Under the pieces are notes generated by a model that ran no database searches, was not told the DNA's origin, and saw only the letters and a program-made list of their open reading frames with translations. Shown here piece after piece: positions 29,609 to 33,930 of a stretch of DNA of 64,000 bases. Numbering within the stretch: position 1 is the first letter of the stretch; each line of letters opens with the position of its first letter. This DNA is from Escherichia coli (lineage in GTDB: Bacteria; Pseudomonadota; Gammaproteobacteria; Enterobacterales; Enterobacteriaceae): assembly GCF_003334785.1 (NCBI RefSeq), contig NZ_QOWV01000005.1; one strand, given 5' to 3'. Made by a program: the position numbers and the translations under genes.

Positions 29609-31057
29609 TTATTCTCCATGCTCATTTTTCTTCAGCTTGCGCATCAGAAGCCACATACGTACTGTCCTGACTTTTAAATCTTTATCAGAGACGGATTCCT
29701 TCACCAGGTCAGCATGATGCTGATAGCCATTAAAGAAGACGTTCAGCACAACGGCGCTAAGGGTTGCGAGCATAATGCCGCTATGTAGCAGCGGTTGCAG
29801 TACGGCCGGTAACTTAGAAAAGAAATCGTGAGAGAGCGTCGGAGTCATGCCAACGCCGAGACTGATCGCCACAATATAGAGGTTGTAACGGTTGGTGGTG
29901 TAGTTACAGCGCGACAGAATTCGAATCCCTGTCGCCAGTACCATGCCGAACATCACTAGACCAGCGCCGCCCAGCACAAATTGCGGAATGGAGGCTACCA
30001 GCACCGCCATTTTTGGCACCATGCCAAACAGGATTAATATAATTCCCGAAGAAATACACACCCAGCGGCTATGAACGCGCGTCACGCTAACCAGGCCAAC
30101 GTTTTGAGAAAATGACGTGTGGGGGAAGCTGTTAAACGTGCCGCCTATCATTGTCCCTACGCCATCGACACGCAGCCCGCGAATAATATCGTGCGAAGAG
30201 AGTTTACGACCGACTATTTCACCCAGTGCCAGGAACATCCCCATCGACTCGATAAACACGATGATTAACACGGCAGTCATGGTCAGAATGGAAACGGGAT
30301 CGAAAATCGGCATACCAAACGACATCGGCGTAACAATCGCAAACCATGAAGCATCATGTAGCCCGGATAAATTGACTTCATTCATCATCCACGAAAGTAA
30401 AAAGCCAAATACAATCCCCAGTAATACGGCGACGTTGGACATAAATCCTTTCGCATAGCGAGTAATGAGCAAGATAAAAATTAAGACGGCAAAGGAGATA
30501 CCTAAATAAACGGGATTACCATATTGCGGATTCCCTTTACCTCCGGCGGCCCAGTCAATACCCACCTGAATGATGCTAAGCCCGATAGAAGTAATAACCA
30601 CACCGGTAACCAGTGGCGGGAATAAAGGCATCAAGCGACCGATAAGTGGCGCTAATAATGTGGTGATAAAACCCGCGGCGATAGTGGCACCAAATATCCC
30701 CAGCAGGCCGATATCCGGGTTCATCCCAATGGCTATCATTGGTGTTACAGCAGCAAAGGTCACCGACATAATCACCGGCAGGCGGATCCCCATAAAGCGG
30801 CCGATACCGATACATTGCAATAATGTGACGATCCCGCAGCAAAAGAGATCCGAGCTAATGAGCATCGCAATAGCTTCTTTTGAGAGGCCCAGTCGGTCAC
30901 CAATCATAAGAGGAACAGCGACTGCACCTGCGTACATGACAAGGACGTGTTGCAGACCGAGTATGATCAGCTTTCCTGGTGATAATATGCGGTCAACCTC
31001 ATCAGTTGGGCGGTCTTGCCCAGAAGATGAGGGAAGTTGGGAATCTATGGCGCTCAT
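29609..31057 (-). CDS. uacT: NCS2-family nucleobase permease (uric acid transporter UacT/YgfU), 482 aa
   Basis: Track ORF 29609..31186; start refined to Met 44 (MSAIDSQLPSSSGQDRPTDE...); polytopic membrane protein of the xanthine/uracil permease family. Confidence 0.9.
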   Translation of the reverse strand: MSAIDSQLPSSSGQDRPTDEVDRILSPGKLIILGLQHVLVMYAGAVAVPLMIGDRLGLSKEAIAMLISSDLFCCGIVTLLQCIGIGRFMGIRLPVIMSVTFAAVTPMIAIGMNPDIGLLGIFGATIAAGFITTLLAPLIGRLMPLFPPLVTGVVITSIGLSIIQVGIDWAAGGKGNPQYGNPVYLGISFAVLIFILLITRYAKGFMSNVAVLLGIVFGFLLSWMMNEVNLSGLHDASWFAIVTPMSFGMPIFDPVSILTMTAVLIIVFIESMGMFLALGEIVGRKLSSHDIIRGLRVDGVGTMIGGTFNSFPHTSFSQNVGLVSVTRVHSRWVCISSGIILILFGMVPKMAVLVASIPQFVLGGAGLVMFGMVLATGIRILSRCNYTTNRYNLYIVAISLGVGMTPTLSHDFFSKLPAVLQPLLHSGIMLATLSAVVLNVFFNGYQHHADLVKESVSDKDLKVRTVRMWLLMRKLKKNEHGE

Positions 31058-31492
31058 CAGTGTTTCTCCTTTCGCCCGCCAGAGTAAAAAGCAACCGTTT
31101 ACGTTAATGAAACTGTCTAAACACATGCTCGTGGAGTGCCAGTTTTTGCGAGGAAGGGGAGTTAGAGACAGGAATTGCGGAGGCAATCACATAATCGTGG
31201 TTAAACCACGAAAATGAGAAGAGAACCTGACAATGGAATTATCTGTAATTTTCTCATATTGATATTTCATTAATCATTCTGGCATGTCGCACTCTCGCAT
31301 TTAATCGTTTTTATCTGGATAGCGCTCTTTTGATCGGCAATGTTGAAATAATGAAAGCGGCATAGATTGAGGGGCAATAATTTGAACTCAGTCGCAAAAT
31401 TATAATTAAAACGGTCATGCTACCTAATATATGCCCGTTTATTGCATCGCGAAATTTGAGAAGACATAACTCATTAAATGAAAGGGATGCAA

Positions 31493-33412
31493 ATGAATAA
31501 GTTTATTGCTGCTGAAGCTGCGGAATGTATAGGCTGTCATGCTTGTGAAATTGCCTGTGCGGTGGCACACAATCAAGAAAACTGGCCGCTGAGTCACAGT
31601 GACTTTCGACCGCGTATCCACGTTGTAGGGAAAGGCCAGGCTGCGAATCCGGTGGCCTGCCATCACTGCAACAATGCCCCTTGCGTTACGGCTTGTCCGG
31701 TTAATGCTCTGACTTTCCAGTCCGATAGCGTACAACTGGACGAGCAAAAATGTATTGGTTGTAAAAGATGCGCAATCGCTTGCCCCTTTGGCGTCGTTGA
31801 GATGGTCGATACGATTGCGCAGAAATGCGACCTTTGTAACCAGCGCAGTTCCGGCACGCAAGCCTGTATTGAAGTTTGCCCAACACAGGCGTTACGACTG
31901 ATGGACGATAAAGGGTTGCAGCAGATAAAGGTGGCCCGCCAGCGCAAAACGGCAGCAGGAAAAGCGTCATCAGACGCTCAGCCATCTCGCAGTGCAGCGT
32001 TGCTCCCCGTTAACTCGCGTAAAGGCGCAGATAAAATTTCAGCGAGTGAACGGAAAACCCACTTTGGCGAAATATATTGCGGGCTGGATCCACAACAAGC
32101 GACTTATGAGAGTGACCGCTGTGTTTATTGTGCCGAAAAAGCTAACTGCAACTGGCATTGCCCGCTGCATAACGCTATTCCGGATTACATCCGTCTGGTA
32201 CAGGAAGGAAAGATTATTGAAGCGGCAGAACTTTGCCACCAGACCAGTTCCTTACCAGAAATTTGCGGCAGGGTATGTCCACAGGACCGTCTTTGTGAAG
32301 GCGCATGTACTTTGAAAGATCACTCGGGCGCAGTCTCTATCGGTAATCTGGAACGCTACATCACCGATACCGCGCTGGCGATGGGCTGGCGTCCCGATGT
32401 CAGCAAAGTTGTTCCCCGTAGCGAAAAAGTGGCGGTGATTGGCGCTGGGCCTGCAGGGTTAGGGTGTGCTGATATTCTGGCGCGCGCAGGAGTTCAGGTC
32501 GATGTCTTTGATCGCCATCCAGAAATTGGCGGTATGCTGACTTTTGGCATTCCTCCTTTCAAACTCGATAAAACGGTATTAAGCCAGCGGCGAGAGATAT
32601 TCACCGCAATGGGAATCGACTTTCATCTTAACTGTGAAATTGGCCGCGATATTACCTTTAGCGATTTAACTTCTGAATATGATGCAGTTTTCATCGGCGT
32701 GGGGACTTACGGGATGATGCGAGCAGATCTGCCGCATGAAGATGCGCCCGGTGTCATTCAGGCTCTACCGTTCCTGACTGCCCATACCCGCCAGCTCATG
32801 GGATTGCCGGAGTCTGAAGAGTATCCGCTGACGGACGTGGAAGGTAAGCGAGTCGTGGTATTGGGCGGTGGCGATACGACAATGGATTGTTTGCGGACTT
32901 CCATCCGCCTCAATGCCGCCAGCGTGACCTGCGCGTATCGTCGTGATGAAGTCAGTATGCCGGGCTCGCGCAAAGAGGTGGTTAATGCGCGCGAGGAAGG
33001 TGTCGAGTTTCAGTTCAATGTTCAACCGCAATATATCGCTTGTGACGAAGATGGGCGTTTAACTGCGGTGGGCCTGATTCGTACCGCCATGGGTGAGCCG
33101 GGGCCGGATGGTCGCCGTCGTCCTCGTCCGGTAGCGGGTTCAGAGTTTGAATTGCCCGCCGATGTTCTGATTATGGCCTTTGGTTTCCAGGCGCATGCCA
33201 TGCCGTGGTTGCAGGGCAGCGGAATTAAACTCGATAAATGGGGCCTGATTCAAACCGGTGACGTCGGGTATTTACCTACCCAGACGCATCTGAAAAAAGT
33301 CTTTGCTGGTGGTGATGCAGTTCATGGCGCGGATCTGGTTGTCACTGCAATGGCCGCAGGAAGGCAGGCGGCGCGCGATATGTTAACTCTGTTTGATACG
33401 AAGGCATCGTGA
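31493..33412 (+). CDS. ygfT: Fe-S (2x4Fe-4S ferredoxin domain) + FAD/NAD(P) pyridine-nucleotide oxidoreductase, GltD/AegA-like, 639 aa
   Basis: Track ORF 31478..33412; start at Met 6 ([26 protein letters not shown]...); CxxCxxCxxxCP clusters followed by GAGPAG Rossmann motif. Confidence 0.9.
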
Positions 33413-33900
33413 TGAAATCGTTAATTATCGTTAATCCGGCTGACTGTATTGGCTGCCGTACTTGTGAAGTAGCCTGTGTGGTCGCTCACCCTTCAGAACA
33501 GGAGTTGAATGCCGATGTCTTTTTACCCCGGCTGAAGGTACAGCGACTGGACAGCATCAGTGCGCCGGTGATGTGCCATCAGTGTGAAAACGCCCCTTGT
33601 GTTGGCGCTTGCCCCGTGGGGGCGCTGACGATGGGCGAGCAGGTGGTGCAGACCAATTCTGCCCGTTGTATTGGCTGTCAGAGTTGCGTCAGTGCGTGCC
33701 CGTTTGGAATGATCACCATTCAGTCGTTGCCGGGGGATACCCGACAACAAATTGTGAAATGCGATCTCTGTGAACAGCGGGAAGAGGGGCCAGCCTGCGT
33801 TGAATCTTGCCCAACACAGGCGCTGCAGTTGCTTACTGAAAGAGAACTCAGGCGAGTCCGCCAGCAGCGTATTGTTGCCAGCGGTGAGAATCCTCTCTGA
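33412..33900 (+). CDS. ygfS: 4Fe-4S ferredoxin-type electron-transfer subunit, 162 aa
   Basis: Track ORF 33409..33900; ATG overlaps ygfT stop (TGATG); four CxxCxxCxxxCP-type motifs. Confidence 0.88.
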
Positions 33901-33906
33901 AAGAAA

Positions 33907-33930
33907 TCTCCGCGCTGAAAGGCGCGGAGA
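33907..33930. terminator. perfect hairpin TCTCCGCGC-tgaaag-GCGCGGAGA between convergent ygfS and ghxQ
   Basis: 9-bp perfect stem, 6-nt loop, A/T flanks on both sides; likely bidirectional terminator. Confidence 0.6.

Follow-up and report, generated by a model that had tools for sequence, protein, structure and literature searches.

The overlapping genes ygfT (uacF) and ygfS of the anaerobic purine/urate island of Escherichia coli probably encode a module through which electrons from formate would pass by way of FDH-H to YgfS/YgfT and on to NAD(P)+, organised as a two-gene operon with predicted translational coupling. The pair would thus act in electron transfer and not as a purine-transforming enzyme. 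We base this reading on the domain content, cofactor-binding motifs, gene overlap and synteny of the pair, all observed here, and on the literature for the genetic role of ygfT and aegA, the need for formate and FDH-H, the binding of sigma54, and joint expression with uacT and the cluster.

Gene overlap and putative divergent promoters

The window analysed, a stretch of 64,000 nucleotides, is E. coli K-12-type DNA, and its ygfT-ygfS region is 100% identical to that of MG1655. The gene ygfT occupies positions 31493..33412 of the plus strand (ATG at 31493, TGA at 33410-33412, 639 aa on translation) and ygfS positions 33412..33900 of the same strand (ATG at 33412, TGA at 33898-33900, 162 aa on translation). 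RefSeq annotates the same two CDSs, which, together with the MG1655 identity, confirms the gene names given in the original prediction. Direct reading of the junction (33400..33414, plus strand) also upheld its statement that ygfS begins within the ygfT stop, with one base of the TGATG common to the stop and to the ygfS start (33412-33414). A Shine-Dalgarno-like GAAGG (33400-33404) lies inside ygfT, 7 nt 5' of the ygfS start. Stop/start overlaps of 1 or 4 nt are frequent in operons and unremarkable alone. The overlap (TGATG or ATGA) together with AAGG(AG) was kept at nine of ten enterobacterial loci from different genera, which shows that the junction is a maintained feature. The sequence hallmarks of translational coupling (a stop/start overlap and a Shine-Dalgarno sequence within the upstream gene) are therefore present and conserved, and coupling is predicted.

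As previously claimed, the pair is divergent from uacT (ygfU; 29609..31057, minus strand), which encodes a urate/H+ symporter and is separated from ygfT by a 435 bp spacer. The convergent neighbour 3' of ygfS is ghxQ. Between these two genes lies a GC-rich hairpin (33907..33930; 9-bp stem with 7 GC pairs) that has a T-run on the minus strand only and was scored as the ghxQ intrinsic terminator; it probably also ends the ygfTS transcript. An Rfam search returned no match within 31-34 kb. Horizontal acquisition of the pair was rejected, the GC content being 0.46-0.55 across ygfT-ygfS with nothing anomalous, as was disruption by IS1: the copies seen in the top BLAST matches lie between ygfS and ghxQ (strain W409), and neither gene is broken.

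We assessed the uacT-ygfT spacer for regulatory elements. The sigma54 binding site 5' of ygfT, TATGCCCGTTTATTGCA (31430..31446, plus strand), has a perfect -12 element (TTGCA) and a non-canonical -24 element, with TGC in place of GGC; it is invariant in the alignment (A1) and found in the same register in 8 genera. It is ChIP-seq site OS32 of Bonocora et al. 2015 (PMC4591121; PSSM 4.5), at which sigma54 occupancy was weak (FAT 3). The TTGCAT block was also considered as a sigma70 -35 element and rejected, given that no -10 element occurs at a fixed distance across genera, that GC(C/A)YG is kept 11 nt upstream, and that the block is the published sigma54 ChIP site. On the opposite strand, TGGCACTCCACGAGCA (31126..31141, minus strand) is a candidate sigma54 -24/-12 promoter for uacT, 69 nt 5' of its ATG. 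This predicted promoter is outside the Bonocora 2015 set (PMC4591121); its position and orientation were kept at all 11 loci, with at best 11 of 12 consensus matches, and it forms an invariant block in the same alignment. A putative CRP-like site, TTTGAACTCAGTCGCA (31381..31396; two mismatches to TGTGA-N6-TCACA), lies about 50 nt 5' of the ygfT sigma54 element; TTTGA-N6-TC(G/A)CAAA was kept in E. coli, Citrobacter, Pseudocitrobacter, Klebsiella, Enterobacter and Serratia, and the match in Mixta was looser. A sigma70 consensus scan of the spacer gave nothing convincing, with counts not above those of shuffled sequence, while FNR-box and NarL heptamer scans gave 3-mismatch matches or none, so that direct FNR control of the ygfT/uacT spacer has no sequence support.

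Published expression data agree with the co-regulation of ygfT and uacT that had been suggested, since the YgeV iModulon contains both genes (its published list does not include ygfS). Moreover, ygfT expression is lower in a ygeV mutant, and urate strongly induces ygfT. The ygfT-ygfS operon appears to depend on sigma54 and YgeV.

Predicted cofactor modules of YgfT and YgfS

YgfT scored 1505.9 bits against the NCBIfam equivalog NF009451 (cutoff 1154), with residues 1-639 aligned to profile positions 1-639, and its RefSeq product name is that of the family, 'formate-dependent uric acid utilization protein YgfT'. It also scored 850.7 bits against TIGR01318 (cutoff 483). A HycB-type 4x[4Fe-4S] ferredoxin domain (aa 1-~140) is followed by a GltD-like module made up of Fer4_20 (aa 188-298) and Pyr_redox_2 (aa 312-623), with Pfam matches to PF14691 (7e-37) and PF07992 (1.5e-20). 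The GltD-like FAD/NAD(P) module predicted for YgfT is thus borne out by both Pfam and NCBIfam, and the protein has the sequence features of a GltD-like Fe-S flavoprotein, with a predicted 2x[4Fe-4S] Fer4_20 domain, FAD fold and NAD(P)H fold. Cysteines C210/213/219/223 and C262/268 were kept in 12 of 12 sequences, and C258 and C272 in 11 of 12; IGAGPAG and LGGGDTxMDC...CAYRRDE were invariant. Among the best 150 representatives at 50% identity, a single one was a full-length relative of YgfT, with no distant full-length relatives, and the HycB-like N-terminal fusion was restricted to the AegA/YgfT cluster. The closest PDB relatives were GltS beta (6S6S_G, 1.6e-108) and HycB (7Z0S_B, 1.4e-30), and no solved chain covered both halves of the protein.

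The motif LGGGDTxMDC...YRR aligned with both NADPH-GltS beta and NfnI. Purely by analogy with NfnAB, flavin-based bifurcation or confurcation could couple, at the YgfT FAD, NADPH, a ferredoxin-like partner (YgfS or the N-terminal domain of YgfT itself) and a third partner. Such coupling would bring the redox potentials of formate, NAD(P)H and urate/isoxanthine into line. After GltS beta, the closest solved relatives of YgfT are indeed NfnB/NfnI large subunits (4YLF_B, 4e-86; 5JCA_L, 1e-85), and bifurcation was raised for AegA in a review (PMC8097209). However, the non-bifurcating GltS beta is the more similar protein and no NfnA-like (FAD/[2Fe-2S]) partner is encoded nearby at the loci examined, and we consider such coupling improbable.

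YgfS is a stand-alone ferredoxin of HycB/HydN type, with 16 cysteines in four groups, Pfam matches to Fer4_11 and Fer4_9, and HycB as its closest PDB relative (7Z0S_B, 8.2e-32). It reached no NCBIfam cutoff, the top scores being to the AegA N-terminus (168 bits) and HydN (137.1 bits). HydN identity (NF007658, cutoff 260) was therefore rejected, with the YgfT N-terminal domain at 121 bits, and YgfS is a paralogue. In each ferredoxin unit of YgfS and YgfT the 16 cysteines are spaced as CxxCxxCxxxC, CxxCx4CxxxCP, CxxCxxCxxxCP and CxxCx8-9CxxxCP, the four-[4Fe-4S] pattern of HycB, and all 16 columns were invariant among 22 sequences (YgfS, YgfT N-terminus and AegA N-terminus). The original prediction had described multiple CxxCxxCxxxCP clusters in both proteins; four cysteine groups per unit are present as that implies, but the strict motif occurs only once per protein (YgfT C87-P98, YgfS C86-P97). 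With these cysteines and their homology to HycB, YgfS and the YgfT N-terminal domain are both predicted to be HycB/HydN-type four-[4Fe-4S] ferredoxins.

Two further origins or fates of ygfS were rejected. YgfS and the YgfT N-terminus form separate clades that are congruent across genera, which indicates old co-inheritance and not a recent copy of the ygfT 5' end. Decay of the gene was discounted on a dN/dS of 0.09-0.13, indicating purifying selection, and on the retention of all 16 cysteines; ygfT is likewise under purifying selection. YgfS is nevertheless not obligatory, given that ygfS is missing in Citrobacter sp. R56 and that aegA has no ygfS-like neighbour.

Synteny, physiology and the route of electrons

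At the enterobacterial loci examined, the overlapping ygfT-ygfS pair was always within the purine island. A selenocysteine fdhF adjoins the permease gene, itself divergent from ygfT-ygfS, in Klebsiella, Enterobacter and Serratia; the in-island fdhF has TGA at codon 140, a SECIS_2 match of 84 bits and a score of 1527 bits to FDH-H (1AA6). In Klebsiella and Enterobacter, ygfT-ygfS directly abuts ssnA-ygfK. The gene for FdhF, the formate-oxidising partner and itself a molybdoenzyme, is not adjacent to ygfT-ygfS in E. coli.

According to the papers that cite Iwadate & Kato 2019, aegA, ygfT and ygeV take part in a urate consumption that requires formate, with FDH-H dependence stated for AegA, and YgfT is defined functionally as required, redundantly with aegA, for formate-/FDH-H-dependent urate degradation. 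It has been proposed that AegA and YgfT carry electrons of formate dehydrogenase to NADP+ or to urate. The original prediction, in which the pair was an electron module for purine/urate enzymes, matches this work as the citing papers relate it. Since a ygfT deletion-phenotype test is already published, the prediction is a rediscovery: its description of ygfT-ygfS was correct, its interpretation largely published, and essentially nothing in it was new. The additions made here are modest, namely the conservation of the overlap, the synteny with selenocysteine fdhF and with XDH-type genes, and the loss of ygfS in one Citrobacter.

In the mechanism we favour, FDH-H (FdhF) would oxidise formate, and electrons would enter at a four-cluster ferredoxin unit of HycB type (YgfS or the N-terminal domain of YgfT), much as FdhF docks on HycB in formate hydrogenlyase (FHL). 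From there the GltD-like module would relay them over its two [4Fe-4S] clusters to FAD, which would reduce NAD(P)+. The 2,8-dioxopurine pathway needs four electrons, and the resulting NAD(P)H would power its two reductive steps, from urate to isoxanthine by XdhD-YgfM, which uses NADH, and from isoxanthine to the dihydro product by YgfK, which uses NAD(P)H. The carrier order, the choice of NAD(P)+ as acceptor and any part played by YgfS are inferred. XdhD-YgfM and YgfK have been reconstituted in vitro with NAD(P)H alone, and YgfT was not needed in the 2025 pathway papers, implying that a YgfT/YgfS module would be auxiliary or condition-specific. AegA and FdhF did not interact in a two-hybrid assay, and deletion of aegA left FDH-H dye-linked activity unchanged. 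For YgfT or YgfS, we found no biochemical assays in the accessible literature.

The leading candidates for the reaction are reduction of NAD(P)+ with formate and direct electron delivery to XdhD. Under the latter, YgfS/YgfT would pass low-potential electrons of formate/FDH-H straight to an XDH-family molybdoenzyme (XdhD-YgfM or relatives), Fe-S to Fe-S, bypassing free NAD(P)H and leaving the GltD-like FAD as a side entry or exit only. Gene order in Mixta and Buttiauxella favours this: there the pair is directly divergent from a molybdoenzyme (XdhAB-fused plus XdhC-type), ygeV and mocA adjoin, no permease intervenes, and both divergent promoters carry sigma54-type elements. The clostridial enzyme XdhAC reduces urate without NAD(P)H, which makes ferredoxin-type donors to this class of enzyme plausible, and one published proposal sends electrons 'directly to uric acid'. 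However, the FAD subunit YgfM is isolated together with XdhD of E. coli, which is active with NADH, and a pure wire would have no need of the FAD and NAD(P)H motifs that YgfT conserves in full. We therefore regard direct delivery as unlikely, albeit deserving of consideration.

The original prediction had also left the direction of flow (input or output) open. YgfT/YgfS could in principle take electrons from the molybdoenzyme during anaerobic oxidation of hypoxanthine/xanthine to urate (XDH) and hand them to NAD(P)+, to FdhF or to the FHL complex in reverse. The pair adjoins XdhABC-type enzymes in several genera, and FHL chemistry is reported to be reversible. This direction is very improbable, given that the published phenotype, as relayed by citing papers, is the loss of formate-dependent urate consumption and thus reductive, that urate induces ygfT, and that XdhABC has its own FAD subunit.

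Returning to formate-driven reduction of NAD(P)+, only synteny and genetics point to a complex of FdhF, YgfS and YgfT. Tentatively, and as a possibility more than an expectation, the three may make up a soluble enzyme dedicated to formate:NAD(P)+ (or formate:XdhD) oxidoreduction, amounting to an FHL without hydrogenase, with YgfS as the FdhF dock, which would be the physiological supply of 2,8-dioxopurine reductant in Enterobacterales. If true, such a complex would explain the formate requirement of urate degradation in E. coli, the presence of a selenocysteine fdhF within the urate island of some genera, and why the pair keeps its predicted translational coupling. Work on urate degradation by gut bacteria, some of it with engineered E. 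coli Nissle strains, is directed at hyperuricaemia and gout. Genetics implicates YgfT and AegA as the link between formate and urate degradation, and the fdhF synteny, XDH-type synteny and conserved, predicted coupling sharpen the hypothesis for the missing redox step. This suggests that engineered strains might gain from co-expressing fdhF, ygfS and ygfT.

Relation to known ferredoxins and GltD-like proteins

The closest comparison is with AegA (NF009408), which is 55.6% identical to YgfT and shares its domain order and 16+ cysteines; YgfT is nonetheless below the AegA cutoff (954 vs 1003). Unlike ygfT, aegA stands alone beside narQ with no ygfS-like gene downstream, and the blocks conserved 5' of ygfT are missing from its own upstream region.

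Among solved structures, HycB (PDB 7Z0S/7Z0T) is the best relative of YgfS (8e-32) and of the YgfT N-terminal domain alike; it has the same four cysteine groups, and Pinske 2018 placed YgfS, YgfT and AegA in one paralogue group with HycB, HydN and YsaA. HycB holds four [4Fe-4S] clusters and is the docking subunit for FdhF, which is loosely bound and for which other partners have been suggested. At 162 aa, YgfS is shorter than HycB (203 aa) and has no counterpart of the insert of about 30 residues that HycB carries between cysteine groups 3 and 4. The FHL structure paper describes a HycB loop, linking the B3 and B2 cluster motifs, that touches HycF and HycE.

GltS beta aligns end to end with YgfT 176-631, and GltD-like modules in general (GltS beta, NfnB and the N-terminal half of DPD) share with YgfT Fer4_20, the FAD motif GxGxxG and the NADPH-type motif GGGDTxMDC...YRR. 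In contrast to those systems, YgfT has no glutamate-synthase alpha subunit, NfnA or DHODH-like FMN domain as partner. In PDB chains 8OH5_C (8e-61) and 9BOV_A (2e-70), a GltD-like NAD(P)H/FAD module and an FDH-like molybdopterin domain are joined in one polypeptide, whereas enterobacterial FdhF, YgfS and YgfT are encoded by separate genes.

The ygfT-ygfS pair and its conservation

The overlap of ygfT (uacF) with ygfS in TGATG and their divergence from the urate/H+ symporter gene uacT (ygfU), both noted in the original prediction, were confirmed by direct reading, translation, and RefSeq. On the plus strand, ygfT runs from ATG 31493 to the TGA at 33410-33412 (639 aa) and ygfS from ATG 33412 to the TGA at 33898-33900 (162 aa), with one base common to stop and start, a Shine-Dalgarno-like GAAGG 7 nt upstream, and RefSeq CDSs with exactly the same boundaries. 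A 435-bp spacer separates ygfT from uacT (29609-31057), and ghxQ lies convergent downstream of ygfS. An alternative ygfT start offered by an ORF finder (ATG 31478) shows no conservation in related species, whereas ATG 31493 is invariant in the alignment. The window derives from a K-12-type E. coli chromosome: a 2.9-kb query over the pair was 100% identical to MG1655 (BLAST) and was found at a coverage of at least 80% in 5180 of 5426 complete E. coli genomes. No gathering-level Rfam match fell in the 31-34 kb region; elsewhere in the window, matches at this level were to SIB RNA, 6S RNA (ssrS), naRNA4, and one tRNA (5475-5625, 6274-6457, 19968-20045, 63187-63257).

Some strains depart from this layout (4390-5087 of locus L022, E. 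coli W409; BLAST matches H1-H3; comparison loci L006/L013 and L007). IS1 is present between ygfS and ghxQ in some E. coli. ygfT is divided over two contig ends in strain SCPM-O-B-8794 and annotated as two separate CDSs in the H1 strain, while in Escherichia sp. MOD1-EC7003 the match is limited to YgfT residues 1-292. Comparison locus L017 (GCA_013422985.1) has its uacT-ygfT-ygfS-ghxQ-guaD-xanQ-xdhD region fragmented into many short ORFs, which points to a genome in decay or to an assembly rich in frameshifts.

Pairs of a YgfT-like gene (639-654 aa) and, after it, a YgfS-like one (154-167 aa) occur in Escherichia spp., Citrobacter MGH106, Pseudocitrobacter, Klebsiella, Enterobacter, Mixta, Serratia, and Buttiauxella; in all of these pair-bearing loci an AAGG(AG) element precedes a stop/start overlap that reads TGATG or ATGA. 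Citrobacter sp. R56 (L004, 9911-9975) lacks ygfS: its ygfT shares 80% identity with that of E. coli, the end of ghxQ comes approximately 55 bp after it, and the remaining island is intact. No ygfS-like neighbour was found at the locus of aegA, which encodes the YgfT paralogue. YgfS orthologues and YgfT N-domains formed separate clades with similar branching orders, and the YgfS-YgfT partnership is therefore old; the same pattern rules out ygfS as a recent duplication. Purifying selection acts on both genes (dN/dS approximately 0.07 for ygfT and 0.09-0.13 for ygfS; window versus comparison loci L002, L003, and L005), and they evolve three- to eight-fold faster than their neighbours uacT, ghxQ, guaD, and xdhD (0.015-0.03). 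Protein identity to Citrobacter MGH106 was 90% for YgfT and 83% for YgfS, versus 96-97% for neighbouring genes.

Regulatory elements in the uacT-ygfT spacer

Published work shows that ygfT is strongly induced by urate, and that its expression goes together with that of the urate permease and urate cluster. The predicted co-regulation with uacT gained support from the YgeV iModulon common to both genes and from conserved sigma54-type elements in the spacer, which together favour a shared YgeV/sigma54 control region. This 13-gene iModulon (PMC10602906, PMC12133099) includes ygfT and uacT and excludes ygfS despite the overlapping reading frames, an absence that could stem from weak signal, from a threshold effect, or from processing of the transcript.

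Scanning the spacer for sigma70 promoters and FNR boxes returned no good candidate. On the plus strand, 46-62 nt 5' of the ygfT ATG, the block TATGCCCGTTTATTGCA (31430-31446) is invariant in the alignment of close relatives and recurs in the same register as YGC(C/A)YG-N4-TTGCA in eight genera. The block coincides exactly with OS32, a sigma54 ChIP-seq site in Bonocora et al. 2015 (PMC4591121), where occupancy was low (FAT 3) and the motif score (4.5) was the weakest among the table rows listed. That this site deviates from GG at -24 in a conserved way is a small new observation. A better sigma54-type match is the predicted -24/-12 element TGGCACTCCACGAGCA (31126-31141, minus strand), 69 nt 5' of the uacT ATG, which is kept in position and orientation in 11/11 loci, including those with an XDH-type enzyme instead of the permease. 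Its promoter role is a prediction, because Bonocora et al. 2015 do not list it among their ChIP-seq sites.

Other conserved features include a CRP-like TTTGA-N6-TCGCA (31381-31396) shared across loci. Between the putative promoter of uacT and its start codon is a PurR-box-like palindrome, AAGCAACCGTTTACGT (31089-31104; 3 mismatches to ACGCAAACGTTTGCGT), which is kept in Escherichia and Citrobacter and deleted in Pseudocitrobacter. Two mid-spacer features, at 31187-31219 and 31249-31285, could be assigned to no known motif: a 16-nt inverted repeat, imperfect in its match (TCACATAATCGTGGTT / AACCACGAAAATGAGA), and a block of strong conservation (TTTTCTCATATTGATATTTCATTAATCATTCTGGCAT). They are candidate sites for the activator YgeV or for architectural proteins.

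Protein architecture

YgfT scored 1505.9 bits on NCBIfam NF009451, 'formate-dependent uric acid utilization protein YgfT' (cutoff 1154). The GltD-like FAD/NAD(P) module attributed to it holds, given 850.7 bits on the gltD-family model TIGR01318 (cutoff 483), its Pfam domains (4Fe-4S dicluster domains at residues 1-140, Fer4_20 at 188-298, Pyr_redox_2 at 312-623), and invariant cofactor motifs. By Pfam, YgfS consists of 4Fe-4S dicluster domains alone. It reached no NCBIfam cutoff; it matched best to the AegA and YgfT models, in their N-terminal parts, and then to HydN (137 bits, under the cutoff of 260).

The multiple CxxCxxCxxxCP clusters claimed for both proteins need a minor correction. Each ferredoxin unit has 16 Cys, in four groups, invariant across 22/22 units compared. 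The strict motif occurs only once per protein, because the groups differ in spacing (CxxCxxCxxxC, CxxCx4CxxxCP, CxxCxxCxxxCP, CxxCx8-9CxxxCP), a pattern that reads as a four-[4Fe-4S] arrangement. The best solved relative of YgfS (8e-32) and of the YgfT N-domain (1.4e-30) is HycB (7Z0S_B), the FdhF-docking subunit of formate hydrogenlyase (FHL), followed by HycB3 and HycB4 of hydrogen-dependent CO2 reductase.

Over residues 176-631, YgfT aligns to NADPH-glutamate synthase beta (1.6e-108) and also to NfnB/NfnI; among solved structures searched with YgfT, no chain covered both halves. Across 12 YgfT/AegA-type sequences, neither the FAD motif IGAGPAG nor the NAD(P)H motif LGGGDTxMDC...CAYRRDE varies, and the latter aligns to the same residues of NADP(H)-dependent GltS beta and NfnI, suggesting that YgfT may prefer NADP(H).

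A probable relay for formate-dependent urate reduction

Genetic evidence ties YgfT, an Fe-S flavoprotein, to urate degradation dependent on formate and FDH-H, the product of fdhF. The original reading of the pair as an electron input or output module for adjacent molybdoenzymes agrees with published proposals: according to papers citing Iwadate & Kato 2019 (J Bacteriol 201:e00573-18), AegA and YgfT would carry electrons from formate dehydrogenase to NADP+ or directly to urate, and AegA is said to act in reductive urate degradation dependent on formate and FDH-H. Those citations indicate that the deletion test suggested for the pair is already published for ygfT. The interpretation is thus correct yet a rediscovery, present in the literature and in RefSeq/NCBIfam naming; pair conservation, clade history, selection, genomic context, and an in-island selenocysteine fdhF are added here.

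We consider it very probable that ygfT-ygfS relays electrons for urate reduction that depends on formate. FdhF would hand electrons to YgfS and/or the YgfT N-domain as the HycB-like unit, and from there they would pass through the GltD-type clusters and FAD to NAD(P)+; the resulting NAD(P)H would serve XdhD-YgfM and YgfK. Rival readings are that electrons go straight to the XDH-family enzyme, that YgfT performs Nfn-like bifurcation, or that the pair has an electron-output role. NAD(P)+ as acceptor is a proposition we hold at just short of evenly balanced; that YgfS is a functional partner, possibly the FdhF-docking subunit, we put forward tentatively. Pinske 2018 groups YgfS, YgfT, and AegA with HydN, YsaA, HycB, and HyfA, and the FHL structure paper, citing both studies, describes FdhF as loosely attached to HycB, with other partners possible. 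According to 2025 preprints, one of which names YgfT UacF, XdhD-YgfM turns urate into 2,8-dioxopurine with NADH and YgfK reduces the product with NAD(P)H, a net four-electron reduction. Neither preprint on the pathway gives YgfT or YgfS a role. What speaks most against the pair being essential is in vitro reconstitution of the pathway with NAD(P)H alone, the absent AegA-FdhF two-hybrid signal (Pinske 2018), and the loss of ygfS in one Citrobacter.

Gene neighbourhoods vary among genera. The pair abuts ssnA-ygfK-mocA-yqeC-yqeB in Klebsiella and Enterobacter. In Mixta and Buttiauxella (L019, L012) its divergent neighbour is an XdhAB-fused plus XdhC-type molybdoenzyme with no permease between, and mocA and a YgeV-like sigma54 activator adjoin the region. 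The fused XdhA-XdhB-like protein (approximately 1070 aa) is 29% identical to XdhA and 27% to XdhD. In Klebsiella, Enterobacter, and Serratia, a selenocysteine fdhF lies beyond a urate-type permease that is itself divergent from ygfT-ygfS (L015 772-2919, minus strand; L016 772-2919; L018 1811-3964; L020 1997-4144). Listed without a Pfam match in the source gene table, its product (715-717 aa) has an in-frame TGA at codon 140 (CCARV-U-HGPS), aligns full-length with E. coli FDH-H (1AA6) at 1527 bits, and scores 1045 bits on TIGR01591 (cutoff 666); Rfam SECIS_2 at the TGA (L015 2453-2507) scored 84 bits (gathering score 70). No paper describing this arrangement came up in a search, limited in coverage, of the literature on fdhF and uric acid. 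Synteny with fdhF and XDH genes makes a specific FdhF-YgfS-YgfT hypothesis testable. Unlike the island fdhF of Klebsiella, Enterobacter, and Serratia, that of E. coli lies elsewhere in the genome, and the in-island gene gives independent genomic-context support for the formate/FDH-H link known genetically in E. coli.
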